From: a virus
Virus record (IMG/VR): IMGVR_UViG_3300048599_000037
Coordinates: 1-38,370 of that record
Direction: 5' to 3' (one strand)
Length of the DNA stretch: 38,370 nucleotides
Shown here: one piece after another, positions 1 to 38,370 of the stretch
Layout: each line of letters opens with the position of its first letter
Numbering within the stretch: position 1 is the first letter of the stretch
Position numbers and translations under genes: made by a program
The notes under the pieces: generated by a model
What the model saw: only the letters and a program-made list of their open reading frames with translations
Databases searched by the model: none
Told to the model about the DNA's origin: nothing

Positions 1-127
1 AATTAACGACCGATTAACTTACAATTTAGTTCAATCAGTAGTTGATACTTTGATGTCTAAGTCTGCGAAGAACAGACCAAAAGCAATGTTTCTAACTGAA
101 GGTGGGGTATTCAAACAACAGCGCAAA
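1..127. repeat. Terminal direct repeat, copy 1 (identical to 38244..38370)
   Basis: Base-by-base reading shows that 1-127 (aattaacgaccgatt...acagcgcaaa) equals the last 127 bases of the window. This marks a circular or circularly permuted assembly, or a terminal redundancy. Confidence 0.95.
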
Positions 128-1648
128 GCTAAAAAGCGCGAAAAGTTCATTGATGGTGTTTTCTATAAAAACAAATTCTATGTGAAATTCAAAGAAGTAC
201 AGCGCGGAGCCTTAGTCAAAGGTGACGGTGTTCTACATGTATTCATCAAAGATGCTGAAATCTGTTATGAAGTTGTTCCTGTTGAAGAGCTATCAGTCGA
301 TCAAGCTGAAGCACGTTTTGGTGATCCAAGACAAATTCACAGAACAAAATATGTTGACCGCGAAGTCCTAATCGCAATGTTTCCTGATAAGGCTAAGATC
401 ATTCAAGAGTGTAACACTGCTAAAGTAGATTCTTCTGGAACTGTTCCTGGAGTTTCTGATTTGATTGAAGTCGTTGAATCTTATCACTTACCATCAGGCA
501 AAAAGAAAAAAGACGGAAAGCATACAATCGTAATTAATTCTGGTGAGCTTTTAGCTGAAGAGTACACAAAACAACGCTTTCCATATGTTAAATTAGGCTG
601 GTCTAAGCGTTTAAACGGCTACTGGTCACAATCTTTAGCTGAACAGTTGCAGAACCTTCAATTAGAAATCAACAAGACTCTATGGGTAATCCAGCGCTCT
701 ATGCATATGGCTGGCTCATTCAAAGTATTAATTGAAAATGGATCTAAGATTGTTACGGAGCATTTAACTAACGATATTGGTGCAATCATTAATTACAATG
801 GTACAGCTCCAATCTATGTTACACCTCCACCAATCCAACAAGAATATTTCCAACATTTACTTAACACTAAACAGTTAGGATTCGAACAAGCTGGTGTTTC
901 AATGTTATCCGCTGCTTCAATGAAGCCAACTGGTGCTGATAGCGGAAAAGCTTTAAGAACTTTAAATGATATCGAATCAGAAAGATTCCTTGCATGGGGT
1001 CAGGCTGGTGAAGAGTTCATGCTTGAAGTTGTAGAAGTAACAATGGATTTCGCAAAAGACTTAGCGGAAATCGTTGAGAAAGATTCTGATTCTGAAACTG
1101 AATTTGCTGTGACTTACGTTGGTAAAAACACAATTCAGAAAATCACTTGGGATGAAATCGCTCCAGATAAAGGTGAAGAGTTTGTTCTAAAAGCTTACCC
1201 AGTATCTCAATTACCAAATGAACCTCGTGGTCGTTTAGCTACTATTCAAGAGTACCGGCAAGCCGGTATTATTAAACCGCGTACTGCAAAACGTTTGTTA
1301 GACTTCCCAGATTTAGAACAAGTGGAAGTGTTGGCAAATGCTGAAGAAGATTATTTAAACAAGATCTTAGAAGACATTTGTGATTTAGGTGAAGCAGGAT
1401 ATGTCCCACCAGATAATTTCGATGATCCACAATTAGCGAAAGAATTGGTTCTGCAATATATCGCTTACGGTAAATTACACAATTTAGATCCTGACAACAT
1501 GGCTTTACTTGAAACGTTCTCAAATCAAATTGATACGTTAGTTGAAAAAGCTATGCCTCCGGTTGATCCAATGAGCCCTCCACAAGGGGCTCCAGAGGCG
1601 ACACCTACGAGCAATTTAATTCCTAACAATGCAGGAGCAGTAGCTTAA
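1..1648 (+). CDS. Portal (head-tail connector) protein, C-terminal part. The ORF begins at 38002 and continues across the junction, about 629 aa in total.
   Basis: The ATG at 50 is in frame with the ATG at 38002 once the 127-bp overlap is collapsed ((38293-38002)=291). Its size, its position next to the scaffold and terminase genes, and its acidic C-terminus fit a podovirus portal. The ATG at 50 in the ORF track is therefore an internal Met. Confidence 0.7.
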   Translation, partial: INDRLTYNLVQSVVDTLMSKSAKNRPKAMFLTEGGVFKQQRKAKKREKFIDGVFYKNKFYVKFKEVQRGALVKGDGVLHVFIKDAEICYEVVPVEELSVDQAEARFGDPRQIHRTKYVDREVLIAMFPDKAKIIQECNTAKVDSSGTVPGVSDLIEVVESYHLPSGKKKKDGKHTIVINSGELLAEEYTKQRFPYVKLGWSKRLNGYWSQSLAEQLQNLQLEINKTLWVIQRSMHMAGSFKVLIENGSKIVTEHLTNDIGAIINYNGTAPIYVTPPPIQQEYFQHLLNTKQLGFEQAGVSMLSAASMKPTGADSGKALRTLNDIESERFLAWGQAGEEFMLEVVEVTMDFAKDLAEIVEKDSDSETEFAVTYVGKNTIQKITWDEIAPDKGEEFVLKAYPVSQLPNEPRGRLATIQEYRQAGIIKPRTAKRLLDFPDLEQVEVLANAEEDYLNKILEDICDLGEAGYVPPDNFDDPQLAKELVLQYIAYGKLHNLDPDNMALLETFSNQIDTLVEKAMPPVDPMSPPQGAPEATPTSNLIPNNAGAVA

Positions 1649-2967: not shown

Positions 2968-3203
2968 TGACGGCTGTCGGTGCAATCAGATCCAAGAAAC
3001 TTATCCGCAGACCTATCGCTAAATACCTAGATGCAAACGGTAATCCATTATGGGTTCAGGCCGATACGATTTTATATCGTCAGGTTTTAGCGACTGTGAT
3101 TCCTGCCAATTATGCTGAAGCTCCGCCTTACTGGTGGTTAACAGAAGAAGATTTCTTCGCATATGATTGGGAAATTAAACAAGAAACAGAAGGAAACGAT
3201 TAA
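2967..3203 (+). CDS. Hypothetical protein
   Basis: ATGA/TAATG-type coupling on both sides. No motif recognised. Confidence 0.6.
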   Translation: MTAVGAIRSKKLIRRPIAKYLDANGNPLWVQADTILYRQVLATVIPANYAEAPPYWWLTEEDFFAYDWEIKQETEGND

Positions 3204-3805
3204 TGAAATACATTTTAATTTTAGCTTTATTATTTACAGGCTGTGTGACTACAGATGTAAAACCAGACTCTCCTAAAGTTCCAGAAGTTGTTGCGCCTGT
3301 TGAACAACCTTCAAAACCAATTGAAAGCGTTTCATTGCTTGCGTGGGGCGATCAAAAACCTTCATGGGATGTGGCTCTATACTCAGAAATCGCAAAGCAT
3401 GATTGGTCTTCTGTGAAGGTTCCTTGTAAGCAATATTCGAAAGAGCATTGTGTTGGTCAATTAATTTCTATCATGGCGAAATATGAAAGCTCATTTAAAC
3501 CAGAGGTAACTTATAAGGAAGGATTTAATGATTCAAAAGGAAAACCAGTTATCAGTCGTGGTCTGTTACAGTTGTCAATCGAGTCAGCTAATCAGAAAGC
3601 TTATGGATGTGAAATCGAGCAAGCCTCTGACTTACATGACCCTGCTATTAACCTTAGATGCGCAGTTAGAATCGTGGCATTCCAAGCTAAGAAATCAAAA
3701 ACACTTATGGGAGAACCAAAGTTGGGATGCGCAGCTTACTGGTCAGTTTGTAGAAAAAGCTCAGGATCAAACGCGAAGATCTTAAAATACATGGAGCAAT
3801 TCTAA
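3203..3805 (+). CDS. Lipoprotein with a family-1 lytic transglycosylase (SLT) domain
   Basis: N-terminus MKYILILALLFTGC is a signal peptide plus lipobox. YESSFKPE...SRGLLQLS matches the SLT catalytic E-S-x-F ... G-L-x-Q motifs. Confidence 0.75.
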   Translation: MKYILILALLFTGCVTTDVKPDSPKVPEVVAPVEQPSKPIESVSLLAWGDQKPSWDVALYSEIAKHDWSSVKVPCKQYSKEHCVGQLISIMAKYESSFKPEVTYKEGFNDSKGKPVISRGLLQLSIESANQKAYGCEIEQASDLHDPAINLRCAVRIVAFQAKKSKTLMGEPKLGCAAYWSVCRKSSGSNAKILKYMEQF

Positions 3806-8070: not shown

Positions 8071-8323
8071 AGCAATAATATCCGGCCATCGATGATAGCG
8101 GAATAGATTGAGCATACACAAATTTGTAAGATCTAACTCCGCATTGTGGCTTTGGTTTAATTCTTTCAGTGTTGTAAATGTAACCTTTTCCATTCTTAAA
8201 ATCTAAAAGGGTGGGATGATAATCTTCAATTGGATATGATCCGCATCCTGCAATCAGCAAGCATAAGAAAACTATTACTAAAATTGCAAGACCCCAGTCT
8301 ATTAATTCTTCTACTAAGCGCAT
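7949..8323 (-). CDS. Lipoprotein of unknown function (candidate o-spanin-like or superinfection-exclusion protein)
   Basis: A hydrophobic N-terminus ends in the lipobox LLIAGC. It is the last gene of the leftward operon. Its 3' 122 nt overlap the 3' end of terL on the opposite strand. Confidence 0.55.
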   Translation of the reverse strand: MRLVEELIDWGLAILVIVFLCLLIAGCGSYPIEDYHPTLLDFKNGKGYIYNTERIKPKPQCGVRSYKFVYAQSIPLSSMAGYYCFKNEEVTQALRDFDEAEREDCERKLQESKTHSLQTGPSHP

Positions 8324-8910
8324 AATGCATTCCTCTCTAGTTGTTCCTGAAATAAATGTCTCCAGGTTTTATTGTGTTTAATGTCTGCAATTGTTTGTCG
8401 ATGAACTTTGTAGTCATTCGCTATGTCTACCAGTCTATCTCCGCGATTAATTCTAAATTTTATCTGGATGACCTCTGAACTTATAAGTTTAGCAAAACCT
8501 TGATCTTCGCCCTTAGCAGTATTCAATCTACCTAGTTTCTTTGCATGAAGAATGTTTTGTTGTTGGGTAACAATCTCCAGATTTTCAAGGCTGTTATTCG
8601 CTCTGTTTGCATCAATGTGGTTTGTGCATTTTCCAAAAAAATCAGCTTCTCTGTTGAAAAACAGAATAACTGCATGATGCGCTAGAACTGTAAATTTAAG
8701 ATCATCGATTACAAAAACATGGCAAACATATCCTTGCGAGTTCTTGCTTTGAGATAATCTGCGATTTACAGGCTTGTTCATAGCATCATTTCTAGAATGA
8801 TTATGAGAGTATACAAATCCGTCTTTTGTGCAGCTATATAAGCCAAGCTCAAAAGCTTTAATGATTGATTTTCTGTGTTTAAGGTCTTTGACCTTTTTTG
8901 GGTGTGCCAT
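8314..8910 (-). CDS. HNH homing endonuclease with C-terminal HTH
   Basis: AHHAVILFF...CTNHIDANRANNSLENLEIVTQQQN is an HNH (H-N-H/N) core. The C-terminal IANDYKVHRQTIADIKHNKTWRHL is the HTH typical of phage homing HNH enzymes. A sampled line has lower GC (about 33%). Confidence 0.8.
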   Translation of the reverse strand: MAHPKKVKDLKHRKSIIKAFELGLYSCTKDGFVYSHNHSRNDAMNKPVNRRLSQSKNSQGYVCHVFVIDDLKFTVLAHHAVILFFNREADFFGKCTNHIDANRANNSLENLEIVTQQQNILHAKKLGRLNTAKGEDQGFAKLISSEVIQIKFRINRGDRLVDIANDYKVHRQTIADIKHNKTWRHLFQEQLERNALCA

Positions 8911-9205
8911 TTAATAACGATCCTCCAGCTTGTATTACATCAGATTCCGTGCTGGCCGGATCGTCAATAACTTTCTGAAGGTCTTCTGAATTTTCTTTGT
9001 CGATATTTTTTTGATCGGCTTTGTCAGCTTCTTGGTCGATTTCCTCAAGAGCTTTTTCGGCGTACTTAGTTACGAAATATGTAACGATCCAAGTCCAAAC
9101 GCCGCCGGATAATGATAAAAAACGCATGATGAGGCCAACGATCCACTTAACCCCTGCTGATTTCACTAGTGATGAAACTAAGTCAGAAAGCTGGCCCCAA
9201 TTCAT
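8879..9205 (-). CDS. Small membrane protein, holin-like
   Basis: Two hydrophobic segments (VKWIVGLIMRFLSL, GGVWTWIVTYFVT) are followed by a highly charged C-terminal tail. Confidence 0.4.
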   Translation of the reverse strand: MNWGQLSDLVSSLVKSAGVKWIVGLIMRFLSLSGGVWTWIVTYFVTKYAEKALEEIDQEADKADQKNIDKENSEDLQKVIDDPASTESDVIQAGGSLLNGTPKKGQRP

Positions 9206-9206
9206 A

Positions 9207-9512
9207 TTAGCCTACTTTGCCATCGATAGAATCTTCAAGCTTTAACACAGCTGCTTTGAAAGCTGGTTGGAAGTGTTGAAGAATCATAGTTGCGATACCG
9301 TCGAATTGATCGCCCGGGATAGCTTTTTTAAGAGCTTCTAAACCTGCATCAAAACCTTTGTCGAAATATTTTTCAGTTAATGCAACAACAACGTCTTCAA
9401 CGTTATCCATAACAGTGTCGCCTTCTTTTTCTTTTGCTAAAGCTGTAACGGCAGTTTGAACCACTTCGCTAACACCAGCTAAATTTTGCATTAAATCATT
9501 TTCTTCTGACAT
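9207..9512 (-). CDS. Hypothetical acidic protein
   Basis: Packed in the operon. No motif recognised. Confidence 0.6.
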   Translation of the reverse strand: MSEENDLMQNLAGVSEVVQTAVTALAKEKEGDTVMDNVEDVVVALTEKYFDKGFDAGLEALKKAIPGDQFDGIATMILQHFQPAFKAAVLKLEDSIDGKVG

Positions 9513-9525
9513 TTGTGTCTCCTAG

Positions 9526-9849
9526 TTATTTGCCTGAATTGGCGTTGTTTTCTGAAATTTGAACAAAAGCTTGGATAAGAGATTGAATGTCACCTTTATC
9601 CACGCTGATCGGTCTTTGATCGGTTCTTAGATGTTTTAGATCTGATTGAACTACGATTAAAGACTCTGTGATCTTTTTAATATTTTCGGCCATGTCTTTG
9701 TAAATTGTATCTTCAAGGTCTTTGACCTTTTCTTTCAAATTTTCAACATCAGACTTAGTTCCTGAAAAATACATCGTCACGACTACAACAGTTCCAACGA
9801 TGCTTATGGCCGAAATTAAGAGTGCAAGTCCTGTGTTGATTTCACCCAT
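9526..9849 (-). CDS. N-terminally anchored coiled-coil membrane protein (i-spanin-like topology)
   Basis: A single N-terminal TM segment (GLALLISAISIVGTVVVVTMYF) is followed by a charged coiled-coil. Confidence 0.45.
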   Translation of the reverse strand: MGEINTGLALLISAISIVGTVVVVTMYFSGTKSDVENLKEKVKDLEDTIYKDMAENIKKITESLIVVQSDLKHLRTDQRPISVDKGDIQSLIQAFVQISENNANSGK

Positions 9850-10065: not shown

Positions 10066-12024
10066 TTATCTAACGCGTAAAATAGTTAGATATCTATTTG
10101 TGCTCGTAAGTGTTCCATTTGTTGTTTTCCATCTAACTTCAATGGCCTGTGATCCGTTAACTGTAACTTCCGCCAAAATATTTGTCGGGAATGGAAATTT
10201 AATCGAGGGTGTAAGGCCTGTTTGAAATTGAGGAGCAACATTGATTTCACTCTCAGTTTCTTTAACTCCGCCCGCATAAACTGAAGCTGTGCCGATAGCG
10301 TTATTAGTATTGTGAGAGAAAGTTGTGTTGAAATTTACTTGATAAGTTCCAGCTGGAGGCGTGATCGTGAAGCCAGTCATTAAAACGTCTGCCGCTGAAG
10401 TTGTTGTTAAAGCTCCAGAAGATTTAATTCTTGTAGTGACAGGTTGCAATGCTGTTGGAGTAACAGAAGTTACGCGACCTTTTGCGTCTGTTGTAATAAC
10501 TGGAATTAAGATTGCGCTTCCGTAAGTTCCAGCAGTTCCCGCATTGATTAAATCAAGTGTTGGATTTCCTGCGATACCATCACCATTTGAAACAGAAATG
10601 TTTGAAGCTGTTCCAGCAATCGTTCTGCCTGCGTAAGTATTTGTTGCGGTCTTTACTAAAATTCCAGTCCCGGCAAAAGCTGCAATCGCTGTTAATTCAG
10701 ATGAAAGCGGCTGTTTTGCTGCAAGATCCGAAACTAAATTTGTTACTTGTGATTGAGCTATTTGAATTGAAACAGATCCAGCGTTCGTTAATTGGCCTTT
10801 TGCATTTACTGTAAAAGTTCCAACAGTTGAAGCCGAGCCATAAGCACCAGCGCCAACACCAGTTCCGTTTAATGTAAGAACACCAGCGTTTGACAATGAA
10901 GCGTCACCAGTTAAAGCCTGTGGAGTCGCTACACCGCCGCCAGAGCCAACATAAATTTGCGCCGATGGAAGAGCAGGAGAAAGTTTTCCGTTAAATGTAG
11001 CCCAATCAGCTGGCGTTAAAAGGCCACGATTAGAAGCTGAAGAAGAAGGAATATTAAAAGTATGTACGCCAGACGATGAATTGATTGCAAAATCACTCCC
11101 TGCTGATCCAGCTTGTAAAGTTTGAGCCGCTTGAGTTTGCGCGTTAATCGAAACTACTGCCGCAGTTAAGTAGGCAACAGTTGATCCAGAAGTCGCGCGC
11201 CCTTTTGCATCTACCGTCACATTATTGTAAGTGCCCGGCACAACAGTTGTATTTGTTAAAGTTGGATCTGGATAAGTACCAGTTAAATCTCCACCTGCTG
11301 ATCCAGTCGGAGTCCTGGCATTTGTTAACCTTGTGTCATCACCTTTAACAACTTCGCCAGTTGCGGCGTCGCCAGAAGAAGGCACGTTAAAAGTCGCAGA
11401 AGATCCAAGTCCAAGATTTGATCTTGTAGTTGAAGAATTTGCAAGAGTAAGAAGCCCAGTATTTGAAATGGTAGCGTCACCAGAAACAGTTTGTTCAGCG
11501 GCGACGTTTGAAATATTACCAATGAAAACTTTTCCATTTGCTAAAACCTGATTAAGTGGGGTGTAAGTTAAAGCAGATGTCACATCAGATGAGCTTAACT
11601 GAGTTCCAGCTGTAGCTCTTCCTTTTGTGTCTACTGTAATTTTCGTGTACGTACCGGCTCCAACGCCAGTATTTGCCAAAGTTAATGCGCCAGTGTTTGC
11701 CAGTGTCGCGTCTCCTGACATGGCCACAGCTGCCGCAATGTTTGAACCGTTACCAACAAGAATCAACGATGATGCTAACGCAGAAGAAAGTTTATTATTA
11801 AAAGTTGTAAAGTCAGCCGCAGAAACATAACCGTTTGTCCCGGTGTCTGCTTTTGAAATGCTGATTGTTCCAGTCATTGAGTTGTAAGTAATGGGCGCTT
11901 GAGTATTCAAAGCACCAACACCGATTTTTTGATCTAGTGCAAATTGAAGGTCAGTCTGATTCGAAAGTGAACCGCTGATTTGTCCCCAAATTGTAGAGCC
12001 CGGAATATTAATCGTTGCGCCCAT
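10066..12024 (-). CDS. Tail fibre protein with repeated modules
   Basis: At least four copies of the module SGDA(T/S)L(A/S)N(T/A)G.LTL ... G(T/A)Y..(I/V)TVD(T/A)KGR(A/V)T(A/S). Also ...TRSNLGLGS... and GDDTRLTNART..., all typical phage fibre motifs. Confidence 0.85.
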   Translation of the reverse strand: MGATINIPGSTIWGQISGSLSNQTDLQFALDQKIGVGALNTQAPITYNSMTGTISISKADTGTNGYVSAADFTTFNNKLSSALASSLILVGNGSNIAAAVAMSGDATLANTGALTLANTGVGAGTYTKITVDTKGRATAGTQLSSSDVTSALTYTPLNQVLANGKVFIGNISNVAAEQTVSGDATISNTGLLTLANSSTTRSNLGLGSSATFNVPSSGDAATGEVVKGDDTRLTNARTPTGSAGGDLTGTYPDPTLTNTTVVPGTYNNVTVDAKGRATSGSTVAYLTAAVVSINAQTQAAQTLQAGSAGSDFAINSSSGVHTFNIPSSSASNRGLLTPADWATFNGKLSPALPSAQIYVGSGGGVATPQALTGDASLSNAGVLTLNGTGVGAGAYGSASTVGTFTVNAKGQLTNAGSVSIQIAQSQVTNLVSDLAAKQPLSSELTAIAAFAGTGILVKTATNTYAGRTIAGTASNISVSNGDGIAGNPTLDLINAGTAGTYGSAILIPVITTDAKGRVTSVTPTALQPVTTRIKSSGALTTTSAADVLMTGFTITPPAGTYQVNFNTTFSHNTNNAIGTASVYAGGVKETESEINVAPQFQTGLTPSIKFPFPTNILAEVTVNGSQAIEVRWKTTNGTLTSTNRYLTILRVR

Positions 12025-12027
12025 CGT

Positions 12028-12399
12028 TTAAACCCCTTTACCGTTAAAATCGAATCTTGTAATTGTTCCAGCTCCAGAAGTTCTATCGTAGCGTGGACGA
12101 ATCCAGCGATGACCAGAAGAAAGAAAGTTGTAAATCTGATCACCAGCTCCATTCACATTTAATAATGTGCCTGTGTCTGTTGACCAAGAATCAGCAGGAA
12201 CGTCCTCTGGACGATTTACGTTTGCATTTGAAATTTCAATATACAAAATTCCAACCGGAACTGGTGCTCCGGCTGACCATTTTGCGACAATTGAAAACGC
12301 AATTAGAGAGCTACAATCTACGGCAGCTCCAATAAGACTTGCAGCCATACTTTTTGAGTTTGGAAAAAAATCATCAATTCCTACTGGTGACATTCTCAT
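12028..12399 (-). CDS. Small virion-associated protein, distant paralog of 16143..16520
   Basis: Shared blocks WS(A)GAPV..G...EISN and (H/F)(R/K)WI..(R/K)Y...SG(A/S)G..T.F..N. It sits directly upstream of the fibre gene. Confidence 0.6.
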   Translation of the reverse strand: MRMSPVGIDDFFPNSKSMAASLIGAAVDCSSLIAFSIVAKWSAGAPVPVGILYIEISNANVNRPEDVPADSWSTDTGTLLNVNGAGDQIYNFLSSGHRWIRPRYDRTSGAGTITRFDFNGKGV

Positions 12400-12408
12400 T
12401 GTAAACTC

Positions 12409-13323
12409 CTAAGGTGTGTAAGATCCATTAGCTGTGAATGTTAGAATTGTGTCGCCTCCACTTGTTGTAATGGAAGGAGATCCTGTAAAAATTGCAGAGT
12501 ATTGAGCTGTCGCAACTCTAATAATCGCAACGCCAGATCCACCAGTTCCACCAGCAGCTGCATCGCCACCGCCACCGCCGCCACCGCCGCGTCCATTAGT
12601 TCCAGATCCTCCGGGATTTAAATTTGATCCACCATTACCACCAATGCCAGAACCACCAGCGCCTCCAGTTACAGAAGATCCTGTTCCGTCATAACCGCCA
12701 CCGCCGCCACCGCCAGCATAAACTAAAGATGCTCCAGAAATTGAGGATGCCAAACCAGCACCACCGCCACCGCCGACAGGAACTCCACCACCAGACACTC
12801 CTCCAGAGCCAACTCCGCCACGGCCACCGCCGCCACCACCAGCACCTTTGTTGCTTGTGAAGGCTGCGTTTCCTCCGTTGTTTCCTTGTCCACCAATACC
12901 AGCGCCACCGACTCCGCCACCGACTCCTAGAGCACCAGCACCACCGCCAGATCCTCCTGATTTTCCATTGACGCCGCCGCCTCCGGGATTAGATCCACCG
13001 CCACCACCGCCAGTTGCTGTTGCTATACATGAGATTGCAGAATTTCCACCGTTAGTTCCATTGGCAGTTCCGCTTCCGCCACCACCACCAGCACCGATTG
13101 ATACAGTACAAACTACGCCAGCCGCTAAAGAGGTTGTCCCGGTAAGCATACCGCCACCACCGCCACCACCACCATTTGCACCACCGCCACCGCCGCCAGC
13201 AACGATTAAATATTGCGCTGATATTCCAGACGGTGCTGCATTTTTCCAAAATGAAAATGGAAAAACAATTGCAGCGCTTGACGTTTGAGAAAATAAAAAT
13301 ATTAATGCTGTTAAAAATTTCAT
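12409..13323 (-). CDS. Glycine-rich repeat protein with N-terminal signal peptide
   Basis: I place the start at ATG 13323 (MKFLTALIFLFSQTSSAAIV...), 2 nt after the upstream stop. The body opens with YLIVAGGGGGG, continues through long GGN repeats and ends with GGSGVAIIRV, like the glycine-rich domain proteins seen in phage tail modules. Confidence 0.7.
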   Translation of the reverse strand: MKFLTALIFLFSQTSSAAIVFPFSFWKNAAPSGISAQYLIVAGGGGGGANGGGGGGGGMLTGTTSLAAGVVCTVSIGAGGGGGSGTANGTNGGNSAISCIATATGGGGGGSNPGGGGVNGKSGGSGGGAGALGVGGGVGGAGIGGQGNNGGNAAFTSNKGAGGGGGGRGGVGSGGVSGGGVPVGGGGGAGLASSISGASLVYAGGGGGGGYDGTGSSVTGGAGGSGIGGNGGSNLNPGGSGTNGRGGGGGGGGDAAAGGTGGSGVAIIRVATAQYSAIFTGSPSITTSGGDTILTFTANGSYTP

Positions 13324-13324
13324 A

Positions 13325-14209
13325 TTAAAAATCCTGCACATAAGAACCGTAAACAAATGTTCCATCGTAATAAAAAGTATATACATCAGATTTTGCACCA
13401 ACCGTCATCGTCGGAGCTGTACCGCCAGACCATTTAAGTGTTGCCGAATTTGGCCATGTCACAGTGTAATTTGAAGCCGTATTGGTAAGTCTAACAACAA
13501 TCGTTTTTCCGGATTCAAGATTTGAAAAAGTAAAAGTGCTATTTGCCGCAAGAGTTTTGGTGAAAGAAGCCGCAGCTGCCCAATTTATATCTAGTGCCGC
13601 AATACTTTGAACGGAGTACATCCCGACCCAAACTGGAGTTGTCCCAGATGCAGCCAGTATTTGTCCATTAGACGGAACATTTGTAGTAACAACTTTAGAT
13701 CCGTCCATATAAAGAACAGTTCCAGCAGAAACTCCAAGTGATCCATTATTTGTACCACCGCGTGCAATTGGGAACACACCACTTGTGATATTTGATGCAT
13801 CCATCGTGGCACCCGTGATAGAAGCCCCACTAATTGAACCACCTGTGAATGTTGTCAAGGTGATTAACGTACTTGTAATCGATCCACCAGAAAACGCAGT
13901 TCCAGAAACTATTCCGCTATCAAAAACAGATCCAGTAATTGATGCACCATTAATGTCTGATGCAAAAATATCTGTTCCACTGATAGAGCCATTTAAAATA
14001 GTTGCTCCACTCACTAGAGGCGTTAAAATAGTTTTATTTGTTAATGTCTCAGCTCCATCAAGTGTTGATAAAGATCCTGCATAATTTGGCAAAGTAATAA
14101 TTGCGCCAGCAGGTCCTGTCACTCGCTTAAATCTGTCAGCATCAATTGTTCTTGATACCTGAGCAAATGCCGTTGTTGCTAAAAGCAATGTTAATAAAAA
14201 CGTTTTCAT
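13325..14209 (-). CDS. Fibre-like beta-repeat protein with Sec-type signal peptide
   Basis: MKTFLLTLLLATTAFA-QV is a signal peptide with an AxA site. The body carries G(G/A)SI(S/T)G(A/T) repeats and the fibre motif FPIARGGTNNGS. Confidence 0.7.
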   Translation of the reverse strand: MKTFLLTLLLATTAFAQVSRTIDADRFKRVTGPAGAIITLPNYAGSLSTLDGAETLTNKTILTPLVSGATILNGSISGTDIFASDINGASITGSVFDSGIVSGTAFSGGSITSTLITLTTFTGGSISGASITGATMDASNITSGVFPIARGGTNNGSLGVSAGTVLYMDGSKVVTTNVPSNGQILAASGTTPVWVGMYSVQSIAALDINWAAAASFTKTLAANSTFTFSNLESGKTIVVRLTNTASNYTVTWPNSATLKWSGGTAPTMTVGAKSDVYTFYYDGTFVYGSYVQDF

Positions 14210-14706
14210 TATTGATTTCTCCCTGTTTCGATTAATTCAGTTCCATCCCAAAACATTTCAACTGTTTTACCAGCTCCTAATACTACTGGGCCATTGATAC
14301 CATCGCTGATTTCAACAGTATTAGTGTCGTCTGTTCCTATTAGCATTAGTCTTTGCCCTGTAAATCCTGCATTTGTAATTTGTGATCTGGTTAAAACTGT
14401 TGGACCCGGAACTCCACCAGCATTTCCAACAACAAACACTTGAATTTCTCCAAAAGTGTTTTTAGAAGTTAAATCAATTACTGCATCAACCTCTAATGGA
14501 GCTGCCTTGGTTGCAATAATGCCAGGTCTAATAAAGACTCCAGCAACTAATGCAGCTTGAAGATTTGTAATAAATGTTTCAAGAGTTCCACCAGTAAGTG
14601 CAACGTAAACTTTGACTGCATTCAAAAGATCTGCAACTGTTCCACCGTCTGTTACTATTTCCGCTTCCGTCTTGAAATCATCATTGATTAATTGACCTTT
14701 AGCCAT
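14209..14706 (-). CDS. Hypothetical virion or tail-associated protein
   Basis: Start coupled to the upstream stop. Good SD (AAGGAG). No motif recognised. Confidence 0.65.
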   Translation of the reverse strand: MAKGQLINDDFKTEAEIVTDGGTVADLLNAVKVYVALTGGTLETFITNLQAALVAGVFIRPGIIATKAAPLEVDAVIDLTSKNTFGEIQVFVVGNAGGVPGPTVLTRSQITNAGFTGQRLMLIGTDDTNTVEISDGINGPVVLGAGKTVEMFWDGTELIETGRNQ

Positions 14707-14719
14707 TTTTTAATTCTCC

Positions 14720-15823
14720 TTAAATATGATAGTGAAATCTTAGTTGTGATCCATCTGCTGCTACCGACTCAAATCCTAAACCATTCCACTTGATAACATT
14801 TCCTTCAACGATAAAGTCATCTTCGTAAATTTGATAACCTGCTGATTTTGTATCGAATAAAACTTCTGTTGGATTTTTTGGTGTAAATTCTAATTGCAAT
14901 TGCTTCGCATCAACTTGATCTTGAGTCAAAGTGATGTATTCAGTTTGCTCTGAGCTTGCATAAACATAAAAATAAACAACGCTAATTGATTGACTGAAGT
15001 TTGGTTCAAATCCAGCGTTAAAAACAACGTTTTTACCCATCATTGTGTATTGATTATCAGGAACTCTTCGTCCATTTTTTAAAACTAAAATTGAAGTTGG
15101 TTCGTTTGCATTAAATCGCATTGGACCAAAAACCAAGTTTGAATTATTGGATAATCCTTTTAGTTTTTCTTGTGAAACTTTTAAAGCTGTTCCACCATCT
15201 TGATAAAAGAATGAAACGTTTTGAGCTGGCGTAGGAGCCGCACCAATATTGAATTGAACTTCATTGTCTGATTGATCGAATGAAAAATCTGATTTAGGAA
15301 CAAATCCGCCATCTATGACAGCGCAAACGGAAGCAGGATCAATTGGAATACCAGCAAGAGTATAATTAGGTCCAGATCCTACAGCAGTTTCTAAAGCAAA
15401 AGTAACTCCGTTTAATCCTGTTGCAATATAGAAAGCCACCACAGAATTTAAAACAACTCCGCCAGTAATATCGACTGAATTTGTTCCAACGTTATAAGTA
15501 TAAAAAGAAGGATCATTTGGTAAAAACTGACCACGAACAGAAACGAAAACCTGAGATCCATTAAGGGGAGTTGCAATCAATGGAAAGTTTACTTGTGCTG
15601 CTGTTGCTAAATACTCTTCCTGCTCTAAATATCCTGTCAAAATTGGAGGAGCATTAGTTGCAGAAATCTCAATTGTATTTCCAACTTGAAGCATCGAAAT
15701 ATTAGCACCTGAAATTAACTGAACTGGATCAGTAATAGCTGGATTACCATCTGCTCTGATAGAGAAGTTATTAACAAACTGTAAAATACCTTCTAATGCG
15801 TTTAATATAACCTTCAATTTCAT
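14720..15823 (-). CDS. Putative tail spike or fibre-related structural protein
   Basis: 367 aa with a beta-rich composition, located in the fibre operon. Position and composition only. Confidence 0.55.
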   Translation of the reverse strand: MKLKVILNALEGILQFVNNFSIRADGNPAITDPVQLISGANISMLQVGNTIEISATNAPPILTGYLEQEEYLATAAQVNFPLIATPLNGSQVFVSVRGQFLPNDPSFYTYNVGTNSVDITGGVVLNSVVAFYIATGLNGVTFALETAVGSGPNYTLAGIPIDPASVCAVIDGGFVPKSDFSFDQSDNEVQFNIGAAPTPAQNVSFFYQDGGTALKVSQEKLKGLSNNSNLVFGPMRFNANEPTSILVLKNGRRVPDNQYTMMGKNVVFNAGFEPNFSQSISVVYFYVYASSEQTEYITLTQDQVDAKQLQLEFTPKNPTEVLFDTKSAGYQIYEDDFIVEGNVIKWNGLGFESVAADGSQLRFHYHI

Positions 15824-16143
15824 TACGTCACCACGGCTTTTTGGAAATCGCCATCAATGTCATAAGTAATTGTCATCAACTGAACATTTGCGCCAAGAAG
15901 TTTTGATTGAATTGTTAAAGGTCCGTTTGCACCTTTTGTCAAAACTGTTAATTGATCGTAAGGAAGAGAAAATAACGTGTTTTTTCTAACTACGTTTGCA
16001 GATCCATCGGCATTAAAAGTTTGAAGATTAGTTCCGTCAGTTGGTTGAACAAACCATGGAGTGGCCGGATTTCCCGGAGCGCCTTGATTTGCTGTTACTG
16101 TGGTTGCGCCGCCGCCTTGTGGAGGCCAGAAAAATTGTGCCAT
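15823..16143 (-). CDS. Hypothetical structural protein
   Basis: ATGA/TAATG coupling on both sides. G/P/T-rich N-terminus. Confidence 0.6.
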   Translation of the reverse strand: MAQFFWPPQGGGATTVTANQGAPGNPATPWFVQPTDGTNLQTFNADGSANVVRKNTLFSLPYDQLTVLTKGANGPLTIQSKLLGANVQLMTITYDIDGDFQKAVVT

Positions 16144-16520
16144 TATCCACCTACCATTTTGTTATTCATGAAAACAGTTAAAGCGCCAGATCCAGAAGAG
16201 AAAACGTATTTAACCGCAATCCATTTAAAAGGAATCTGATTGATCGAAACAAGGTGATTTGTTTCAGTCGCATCAATTTCAATTGTTGCGCCGAAATCTA
16301 ATTTTACGAAATCATTAGCGCTTAATTGCTCTTTTATTTTTGCAGAATTTGAAACGTAAATTTCAAACTGTCCAACTGGAGCACCTGACCATGCTAAAAT
16401 AATCCCGATGTTATCCATGAAGTTTACTTCTGTTGGATCGGCAAAATTATCAACGTCAGTAACTAGAGTGTTATTTGTGAATTGTTTGACTATATAATTG
16501 AGCGTGTCCTTACGAGCCAT
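16143..16520 (-). CDS. Small virion-associated protein, distant paralog of 12028..12399
   Basis: See 12028..12399. The C-terminal FKWIAVKYVFSSGSGALTVF aligns with HRWIRPRYDRTSGAGTITRF. Confidence 0.6.
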   Translation of the reverse strand: MARKDTLNYIVKQFTNNTLVTDVDNFADPTEVNFMDNIGIILAWSGAPVGQFEIYVSNSAKIKEQLSANDFVKLDFGATIEIDATETNHLVSINQIPFKWIAVKYVFSSGSGALTVFMNNKMVGG

Positions 16521-16785
16521 AAGATTCCTTTACTGAAACATTTCGGTAATACCATTTACCTGTCGAAATGAATCGTTCAACGCCTCCCAATTGAAGGGCA
16601 TTGTTAATAGTCCTGTTGTTGTAGGGACTTTTGTTTAATTTCAGGATTTTGTAAATTGCGTCTTGGACTTTTCCGACTTGAGTGCGTTCTGAAGACTTTT
16701 CAGTTACCGCATGAAATGCCTTTAATATTAGATCATTAAGAGCTTCGCGCTTTTTTAATTCTTCATTAATTTGATCTAACATCAT
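16510..16785 (-). CDS. Hypothetical protein, first gene of the leftward late operon (possibly winged-helix-like)
   Basis: SD GGGGA lies before ATGATG. I am not confident of any motif. Confidence 0.55.
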   Translation of the reverse strand: MMLDQINEELKKREALNDLILKAFHAVTEKSSERTQVGKVQDAIYKILKLNKSPYNNRTINNALQLGGVERFISTGKWYYRNVSVKESYGS

Positions 16786-38001: not shown

Positions 38002-38370
38002 ATGGATATAAATACTATGTCTCACAACGGGAAACCTCCTGAAAAGAAACAGTCAGAAAACAAATCTCGTCGTTGGTGGTTAGAGCCAAACAACAAAATC
38101 GCTGACGCTGTTATCTCAAACTTTAATATTATCTATCAAAATGATTCTGCCAGAAGATATCAATATGAAATCTCCTCACGCCTTTACGCTAATATCAATA
38201 TCGTAGGCGCTCCCACTCAAGTCGTAACCAATCAAAAGAAAACAATTAACGACCGATTAACTTACAATTTAGTTCAATCAGTAGTTGATACTTTGATGTC
38301 TAAGTCTGCGAAGAACAGACCAAAAGCAATGTTTCTAACTGAAGGTGGGGTATTCAAACAACAGCGCAAA
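38002..38370 (+). CDS. Portal protein, N-terminal part (continues at base 128 of the window through the repeat)
   Basis: ATG 38002 preceded by AAAAGGA. The frame stays open to the window end and is in frame with 50..1648. Confidence 0.7.
   Translation, partial: MDINTMSHNGKPPEKKQSENKSRRWWLEPNNKIADAVISNFNIIYQNDSARRYQYEISSRLYANINIVGAPTQVVTNQKKTINDRLTYNLVQSVVDTLMSKSAKNRPKAMFLTEGGVFKQQRK
38244..38370. repeat. Terminal direct repeat, copy 2 (identical to 1..127)
   Basis: See 1..127. Confidence 0.95.

Follow-up and report, generated by a model that had tools for sequence, protein, structure and literature searches.

Paired tail-fibre-type genes with predicted signal peptides in a podophage-like genome: a candidate fibre tip for assembly outside the cytoplasm

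Why would a tailed phage put export signals on its fibre proteins? Tail fibres are taken to be products of assembly in the cytoplasm. The question is raised by two adjacent genes, here called A and B, in the viral sequence IMGVR_UViG_3300048599_000037 of IMG/VR, which was analysed over its whole length of 38,370 bases (the window). Both genes encode fibre-type proteins, and both products begin with what look like cleavable Sec signal peptides, as a preliminary description of this DNA had proposed. Among the fates it offered were receptor masking, superinfection exclusion, surface decoration and an unconventional route to the virion; it did not give the strand and did not treat the two proteins as halves of one module. 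Our analysis of sequences and predicted structures indicates that A and B are probably a partner module whose two proteins would be exported, cleaved and joined in a complex. The module itself is real, is widespread in metagenomes and, as far as we could find, is undescribed. Both host-range prediction and phage engineering aim chiefly at receptor-binding proteins. Should A and B be exported, one possibility is a new step in phage morphogenesis, in which virions are armed outside the cytoplasm; the other is that phages have repeatedly converted their fibre tips into factors that act on the envelope, and these would form a new and very common class of proteins for exclusion or host manipulation.

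Both open reading frames (ORFs) and their translations were checked and are as first described, and both genes lie inside a minus-strand operon of fibre genes with 1-nt spacing or overlap (Table 1). The ATG of A, at 14209, overlaps the stop codon of the upstream gene for a 165-residue protein (TAATG) and has GGGAG 10 nt upstream. The ATG of B, at 13323, lies 1 nt past the TAA of A and is preceded by AGGA. A and B are translationally coupled within the fibre operon. The preliminary description had allowed for correct start codons downstream of the hydrophobic segments; such later starts are neither needed nor plausible. A longer, TTG-initiated ORF for B from 13401 would overlap A and was also set aside as not needed.

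Table 1. Genes A and B, their predicted parts and the surrounding operon (window coordinates)
Feature	Position	Strand	Description
Gene A	13325..14209	-	294-residue pre-protein: signal peptide, conserved mature N-terminus RTIDADRFKRVTG, GxSISG beta-repeat shaft, conserved C-terminal domain
Gene B	12409..13323	-	304-residue pre-protein: signal peptide, FPFSFWK motif, polyglycine-rich globular domain
A signal peptide (predicted)	14162..14209	-	residues 1-16, MKTFLLTLLLATTAFA; predicted cleavage AFA↓Q, then QV
B signal peptide (predicted)	13273..13323	-	residues 1-17, MKFLTALIFLFSQTSSA; predicted cleavage SSA↓A, then AIVFPFSFWK
A shaft	13805..14047	-	about residues 55-135, GxSISG-type beta-repeats
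A C-terminal domain	13328..13618	-	about 95-97 residues, beta-sandwich; proposed docking platform for B
FPFSFWK motif of B	13243..13263	-	residues 21-27, 3 residues past the predicted cleavage; proposed docking peptide
Polyglycine-rich 'brush'-type domain of B	12412..13227	-	residues 33-304
Minus-strand operon	~16785 down to ~8880	-	products in order: 91, 125, 106, 367 and 165 residues, A, B, 123 residues, 652-residue fibre, then small membrane proteins
367-residue protein	14720..15823	-	same operon; no family match, no signal peptide; syntenic in L002
165-residue protein	14209..14706	-	upstream of A; no signal peptide; a 165-residue gene is kept just before A in L001 and L002
123-residue protein and 652-residue tail fibre	10066..12399	-	downstream of B; neither with a signal peptide

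The leader of A consists of an n-region MK, an uncharged 14-residue h-region (TFLLTLLLATTAFA) and the predicted site, with an arrow marking the cut, AFA↓Q. The leader of B has MK, an h-region of 9 residues (FLTALIFLF), a polar c-region and the predicted site SSA↓A. Lys occupies residue 2 in both, and most leaders of related proteins have 1-3 Lys or Arg. Kyte-Doolittle maxima over 10 residues reach 2.15 in the A leader and 2.46 in the B leader, and in length the h-regions fit a signal peptide, not a transmembrane segment. Neither protein has a Cys at or near its predicted cleavage site, i.e., there is no lipobox. By our heuristic, only A, B and a lipoprotein encoded at 3203..3805 have such N-termini among the real genes of the window; the remaining matches begin at internal starts or belong to small ORFs that lie within larger genes or on the other strand. 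The signal-like N-termini of A and B exceed chance expectation.

Orthologous loci bear on whether these leaders are made at all. Between the window and a syntenic contig (L002), all five changes within the first 30 codons of A are synonymous, so that the encoded peptide is identical. The A leader of a further locus, L001, is diverged yet equivalent. In L001 and L002 the B leader has changed in both sequence and length and has kept the Lys/hydrophobic/AxA layout, and residues just past the predicted cleavage site are conserved while the leader sequences drift. Synonymous-only changes, together with a layout kept in orthologues, argue that the leaders are translated and under selection. In the AlphaFold2 (AF2) model of A, residues 2-14 form an N-terminal helix ahead of a low-confidence stretch at residues 19-23; in the model of B, the predicted local distance difference test score (pLDDT) is below 50 at residues 1-12 and averages 45-55 across residues 1-30. 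From their n/h/c layout, their AxA sites and their retention in orthologues, both N-termini would behave as cleavable Sec signal peptides, and they look like substrates of signal peptidase I.

The proposal that both products are fibre-type proteins also stood up. A is a genuine fibre-type protein, probably a trimeric fibre or adaptor, with orthologues (P0002-P0006) at 48-64% identity. Over the GxSISG repeats its AF2 model draws short regular beta-strands (residues 55-102), and residues 113-135 fall below a pLDDT of 50. In BFVD this model has matches at E<=1e-3 to 175 viral proteins, most of the named ones being called tail fibre proteins. The most widespread part of A is its C-terminal domain (C-domain), modelled with a pLDDT of 84-96, which always stands at the extreme C-terminus and is 60-78% identical between otherwise unrelated proteins. 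An exhaustive search with a full-length A profile, in which this domain dominates, yields 4,708 cluster representatives at E<=1e-3, and 1,599 at the stricter E<=1e-10. In cultured phages, the C-domain sits on tail proteins with ordinary N-termini and no signal peptide: a 222-residue tail protein of rV5-like coliphages, a 231-residue protein of Limnohabitans phage DC31, a 471-residue putative tail fibre of Roseobacter phage CRP-603 and a 447-residue protein of Leptospira phage LE1. It matches no PDB chain by sequence and no Pfam family. Against PDB structures, Foldseek finds weak matches of the A model to the Pa223 spike and to the N-terminal region of CBA120 TSP4 (for TSP4 1-335, probability 0.97-0.98, E = 0.016-0.07, template modelling score [TM] ~0.25), a region that we take to carry domains on which other tailspikes dock. 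As to the other end of A, no signal-less homologues of the mature N-terminus (DADRFKRVTG) turned up in the local data beyond close orthologues, and the back-translated DADRFKRVTG pattern had 0 matches in IMG/VR.

B matches phrog_2295 at 2e-30 and is 35% Gly, as counted over the longer TTG-initiated ORF. Its AF2 model is one compact glycine-rich domain with a pLDDT of 91 and a predicted TM of 0.87. The Pfam family Gly_rich_2 (PF21722) aligns to residues 30-270 at 15.1 bits (E = 0.023), below the gathering threshold of 24.3 bits. A phmmer search returned 2,482 homologues, and most of those listed, down to E = 1e-37, carry PF21722. With PF21722 in its homologues, the phrog_2295 match and the sub-threshold Pfam score, B is best described as a divergent relative rather than a formal member of Gly_rich_2. 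The best PDB matches by Foldseek are Bxb1 tail-tip chains (E = 8e-4) and the fibre of cyanophage Pam3, with TM values of 0.28-0.37; the glycine-rich domain of ALK gives only a non-significant match (E above 1). Polyglycine 'brush' domains are regarded as receptor-binding tail ends (PMC13243795). In the siphophage tail tips of mycobacteriophage Bxb1 and Alishewanella phage LSH1, as in the Pam3 fibre, they are the nearest likeness to B. The homologues of B are mostly 350-520 residues long, with the glycine-rich domain as a C-terminal module behind a fibre or LamG-like N-terminal part, and only 2 of the 120 best have a signal-peptide-like N-terminus, the other 118 having none. In B, by contrast, the glycine-rich domain comes almost directly after the signal peptide. 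We conclude that B is a globular polyglycine 'brush' tip protein that probably docks on A.

The case for docking comes from the company that A keeps. We collected 116 loci, in which a hidden Markov model of the C-domain picked out 76 distinct A-type ORFs whose 5' ends are complete. The next gene mostly starts within a few bases, and its product carries the motif [IV][VF][FY]PFSF[WIVL]K. Such pairs occur in cultured Leptospira phage LE1 and in contigs that are podophage-like (L015), myophage-like (L014) or of other kinds. Where A lacks a signal peptide, the motif of the partner follows directly after Met1, at residues 3-9 (MIVFPFSF.., MIFPFAFW.., MQFPFSYWK; 26 distinct pairs). Where A bears a signal, its partner bears one too, and the motif lies 1-5 residues past the predicted cleavage site (15 in L053). 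There are 11 such pairs, those of the window, L001, L002, L014, L015, L019, L020, L023, L049, L053 and L054, and they span virus types: L015 is podophage-like, with an SU10-type adaptor, and L014 is myophage-like, with Baseplate_J. Mixed pairs number 0, against 11 with both signals and 26 with neither (Fisher p = 1.2e-9, uncorrected for shared ancestry). This co-variation argues that A and B must share one compartment.

The sequence of the motif also goes with that of the C-domain. C-domains at least 58% identical to that of the window mostly pair with ..SFW motifs, and those at most 51% identical pair with VFP[FV]SF[IVLF..] motifs; C-domain subtype thus tracks motif subtype, as expected for a co-evolving interface. 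Behind the motif, B-type partners vary from glycine-rich domains to a SASA esterase and unknown domains of 150-1,070 residues, which is expected of exchangeable tips. The window has one A-type C-domain and one FPFSFW motif, with no signal-less copy of the module in the genome. The simplest picture is that the C-domain of A is a socket and FPFSFWK a plug. If so, the two would make a compact, apparently portable docking pair, usable for tip swapping.

Two known kinds of fibre architecture resemble this picture. In T2 and S16, gp37 and gp38 are likewise encoded by two genes, and a fibre receives from the next gene a small glycine-rich (polyglycine-II) adhesin that is attached by its N-terminal part. 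We found no sequence similarity, and S16 gp38 is absent from the 37 Foldseek PDB matches of B; the resemblance is functional and architectural only. The dock of the A-B pair is a beta-sandwich of ~95 residues and the attachment element a 7-residue motif; moreover, neither gp37 nor gp38 bears a signal peptide, and both are assembled by way of chaperones inside the cytoplasm. The second kind comprises branched systems with T4 gp10-like (XD) domains (CBA120 TSP4/TSP2, G7C gp66-gp63.1 and the rV5/phi92 type), in which, as proposed for A, a small beta domain is the socket for the N-terminus of the next protein and the tips are swappable. G7C gp63.1, like one B-type partner, is a SASA esterase, and the rV5 tail protein of 222 residues ends in the A-type C-domain. 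Unlike the window, rV5 has a neighbour gene without the FPFSFWK motif. Unlike the XD systems, A has its domain at the extreme C-terminus and matches them weakly in structure (E = 0.016-0.07, TM ~0.25), and none of them is known to be exported.

Are the leaders removed? A different reading of the hydrophobic N-termini is that they are uncleaved helices that tether A and B to the inner membrane or to each other, with both proteins remaining cytoplasmic parts of the virion. The helix that AF2 draws for residues 2-14 of A would suit such a tether, as would the ambiguous charge balance around its hydrophobic segment (K2 before; R, D, D, R, K and R after) and a signal-peptide call made by heuristic and comparison. 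Against a tether, h-regions of 9-14 residues are too short for a membrane span. Moreover, among the 22 predicted A and B leaders of the 11 signal-bearing loci, 19 end in Ala at -1, and position -3 is in every case small or aliphatic (A, S, G, T, V, I or L); of the three others, two end in Ser and Cys and the third is a lipobox, LTA↓C, whose -1 residue is also Ala. The leaders drift freely in front of conserved residues, one B-type leader (L049) is that lipobox, and the position of FPFSFWK directly after Met1 in the 26 signal-less homologues argues that the motif needs a free N-terminus. Indeed, the predicted mature N-terminus of B reproduces that of its signal-less homologues, which is strong comparative support for cleavage. 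We therefore consider an uncleaved tether highly improbable, and cleavage by signal peptidase I remains the preferred reading.

Two of these loci have leaders of separate interest. At L049 1853..2428, the B-type protein has its lipobox (LLTA↓C) directly before YPFSFWK and would be a lipid-anchored tip. At L053 2833..4385, the adjacent A-type and B-type proteins carry nearly identical signal peptides (..VFLSAIRFPQSGFA, ..VFLSALRFPQSGFA), suggesting that one gene received a copy of its leader from the other.

The signal-bearing state extends well beyond these pairs. Among the best 120 database homologues of A, signal-peptide-like N-termini are found in 63 (heuristic) to 67 (by eye), and in 37 of 90 further representatives at 50% identity. 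A secretion signal is thus present in 40-55% of the 210 distinct members scored from a family of 4,708 representatives. Nine of 19 clusters at 75% identity are mixed for signal state, which argues that the state has switched repeatedly. Signal-bearing members range from proteins of 125 residues to fibres of 1,000-1,500 residues and fall into groups, each with its own conserved motif right past the cleavage site. The signal-less 165-residue protein encoded just upstream of A has an N-terminus homologous to one of these groups (…A↓GKLQNSDFxTSAxITGAGG…). A Pfam scan of ten signal-bearing A-type proteins found no envelope-binding domain (LysM, OmpA, SPOR or similar). Signal state would serve as a simple, testable marker in metagenomes.

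A number of long fibres (P0245, P0249, P0260, P0264, P0290, P0309 and the product of L017 1085..4276), of 620-1,210 residues, combine a signal peptide, the sequence ..A↓xP[VTL]IW[DAS]G.. and an A-type C-domain at the end. They are a separate subgroup of the exported family.

How might exported fibre proteins be used? A and B would be made late, as Sec pre-proteins, from the coupled operon that holds the other fibre genes. The host Sec machinery would carry them across the cytoplasmic membrane, and signal peptidase I would cut both at the sites given above, exposing FPFSFWK. The A-B complex would then form separately, in the envelope or periplasm, with capsid and tail being assembled in the cytoplasm. 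Lastly, the complex would stay a structural fibre and join the virion once holin and endolysin merge the compartments at lysis. Comparison across loci establishes the partnership, the signal-peptide features and their co-variation, and makes export, cleavage and complex formation probable. The explanation as a whole, in which A and B are halves of a modular tail-fibre tip that are exported, processed and paired outside the cytoplasm, seems to us nearly as likely to be right as wrong. Its last step is more weakly supported than the module itself: joining of A-B to particles at lysis is the slightly favoured fate of the complex, and we propose it tentatively, with some doubt. Still more general, and rather unlikely on present grounds, is the idea that some tailed phages build part of their host-recognition apparatus on a second, extracytoplasmic virion assembly line. 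A possible purpose would be to spare the cytoplasm receptor-binding proteins that are sticky, bind lipids or are open to immune detection.

Precedents for the exported state come only from other kinds of protein: Sec-exported endolysins, exclusion lipoproteins and the fibres of Bdellovibrio. Lys44 of Oenococcus phage fOg44 is, according to PMC8878798, a late phage endolysin that uses host Sec and signal peptidase before lysis. Unlike A and B, Sec-exported endolysins are enzymes of the lysis pathway rather than virion-type fibre proteins.

The exclusion lipoproteins bring in what we rank as the main rival to a structural fate, namely that the exported A-B complex never joins the virion and instead acts on the envelope of the producing cell, where it would bind or, if the B-type partner is an enzyme, modify the receptor or its precursors from the periplasmic side, blocking superinfection or the loss of progeny on cell debris. 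A and B would then be the fibre-derived counterpart of Llp or Cor. Exported receptor-blocking proteins beside receptor-binding genes are established, in T5 Llp and in phi80 and N15 Cor. Together with P1 Sim and TP-J34 Ltp, these resemble A and B in having an N-terminal export signal, in lying in or beside the tail-fibre region and in acting in the envelope of the infected cell. They differ in being small lipoproteins or periplasmic proteins that are unrelated to fibres and are expressed early or from a prophage; unlike Llp and Cor, A and B have signal-peptidase-I sites in place of a lipobox, are ~280 residues long when mature, are homologous to virion fibre modules and lie in a late structural operon. 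Masking would be compatible with a separate signal-less fibre in this phage, with signal-bearing A-type proteins that are shorter and lack long N-terminal regions, and with the sialate-O-acetylesterase (SASA) domain of one signal-bearing B-type partner, which could destroy a receptor.

Other features speak for a structural fibre. Masking needs only a binding domain; here the N-terminus, shaft, dock and tip are all kept, and adaptor, shaft and both docking elements are co-exported in 11 of 11 pairs. Some signal-bearing members are fibres of 1,000-1,500 residues. A and B are coupled within a structural operon (1-nt overlap or spacing) and not set apart like a moron, and such tight coupling suggests late expression, which would be poor timing for exclusion. 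The motifs that follow the signals equal the N-termini of the signal-less homologues, suggesting the same docking partners. The genome has only this one A-B module, so there is no signal-less second tip, i.e., no virion-borne counterpart whose receptor would need masking. Finally, a periplasmic protein cannot get to an outer-surface receptor before lysis. Masking therefore appears unlikely to us, with arming of the virion at lysis kept as the working proposal.

Several points weigh against export and assembly outside the cytoplasm. We know of no tailed phage that takes a part of its virion from the periplasm, and literature searches for fibres that are secreted or bear signals, and for fibre domains rich in glycine, found no account of signal-peptide fibres in tailed phages. 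The signal peptides were called by a home-made heuristic and comparative evidence, and the contact between C-domain and motif is inferred from gene order, conservation and co-variation. The Fisher statistic for that co-variation ignores shared ancestry, and nearest neighbours on a tree of C-domain similarity share signal state in 93 of 120 cases against 60 expected. Foldseek backing for a docking (XD-like) fold in A is weak (E = 0.005-0.07, TM ~0.25). A lacks the N-terminal region of ~100 residues found in its signal-less relative P0009, which fits a non-virion form, and signal-bearing A-type members are in general shorter (median 260 versus 312 residues). The window also encodes a separate signal-less fibre of 652 residues, so the virion may not need A-B.

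Export could also serve the infected cell or its neighbours, with A-B displayed as a surface fibre or released as a diffusible 'public good' fibre or lectin that prepares neighbouring cells. [quoted passage not shown] The signal-bearing phage members show comparable conserved motif families right past the cleavage site, and L001 (50.7 kb) has four more signal-peptide-like ORFs after its A-B pair (12526..16564; 313, 270, 148 and 136 residues). Unlike A and B, the MAT genes are chromosomal genes of a predator, their products are displayed on the cell, and many end in peptidase S74, which Pfam finds in neither A nor B. A search with the 165-residue protein for a link to MAT returned one near-identical protein only. 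Moreover, A and B have no evident route across the outer membrane: a scan of ~38 of the ~44 window genes with Pfam and PHROG found no C-terminal domain of the type IX secretion system (T9SS) type, no autotransporter and no usher. No integrase was found among the window ORFs scanned in this way, which makes lysogenic conversion unlikely. A cell-surface or diffusible role for A-B is accordingly quite improbable, in our estimate, and a virion part remains the preferred use of the exported complex.

The idea that A is T9SS cargo was rejected separately. Its C-domain has no Pfam match and is shared with tail proteins that lack signals in phages of E. coli, Leptospira and Roseobacter; B is signal-bearing yet has no C-terminal domain of the Por_Secre_tail type; and Shine-Dalgarno motifs precede 29 of 44 window genes, which argues against Bacteroidota. 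A Bacteroidota host, an idea that came from the many AxA↓Q sites, was dropped on the same Shine-Dalgarno count. The short leaders and the lipoprotein gene with an SLT domain described below suggest, short of proof, a diderm host.

The genome that carries A and B is podophage-like. An exact direct repeat of 127 bp at 1..127 and 38244..38370 indicates that the window is a complete, circularly assembled phage genome of ~38.2 kb. It encodes a portal, a large terminase, an SU10-like major capsid protein and adaptor, a RecT-type recombinase and three very large proteins (1,199, 828 and 968 residues). The portal ORF, 50..1648, is listed with a TTG start, and its real start probably lies before the genome junction. 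No close cultured relatives were found by megablast of 9.5 kb or by tblastn with the capsid protein, and the terminase is only ~25% identical to those of Pelagibacter and Rhizobium phages. A scan of GTDB with the A C-domain returned only seven contigs of metagenome-assembled genomes, from scattered phyla, which are probably binned phage contigs.

In the operon around A and B, the N-terminal domain of the 165-residue protein (MAKGQLINDDF..) has phmmer matches to P0016 residues 21-158, P0097, P0052, P0105 and the product of L054 2291..3151. In P0016 and the L054 product, fibre proteins of other phages, the counterpart of this module directly follows a signal peptide, and in P0016 it is fused to an A-type C-domain. 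The 652-residue protein has PHROG matches to structural and tail fibre proteins and is a candidate for a separate receptor-binding protein of the virion. After the fibre genes, 8879..9849 (minus strand) encodes a 107-residue protein with an N-terminal membrane span and a coiled coil, and a 108-residue protein with two hydrophobic segments; these are likely holin or spanin-type lysis proteins. Small membrane proteins of similar layout come after the B-type gene in L014, L015, L016 and L054. The gene at 8314..8910 (minus strand) encodes an HNH endonuclease (phrog_59, E = 1.6e-29) and lies in the vicinity of the large terminase gene, which is on the other strand. Pairing of an HNH endonuclease with the large terminase is common in phages with cohesive (cos) ends.

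Two apparent features at B are products of its composition. The Pro-rich ORF of 146 residues on the plus strand, 12848..13288, is not a gene and is the mirror image of the glycine codons of B. The GC peak at 12001..13000 (0.50 versus ~0.38) is a by-product of the same codons and not a foreign insert.

In L001, the 313-residue exported protein and a signal-less 153-residue neighbour have a common C-terminal end, and a 120-residue lipoprotein adjoins a Peptidase_C92-like gene. A lipobox scan of the window found the product of 3203..3805 as its only credible lipoprotein and no o-spanin-like lipoprotein, which would point to a diderm host; small lipoprotein ORFs lie near the lysis genes of L001, L014 and L054. 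Among the head genes of the window, 3203..3805 (plus strand) encodes a protein of 200 residues that bears a lipoprotein signal (MKYILILALLFTG↓C) and in which Pfam finds an SLT lytic transglycosylase domain (E = 6.9e-6). This protein could be a lipid-anchored muramidase and would be the third exported late protein of the phage.

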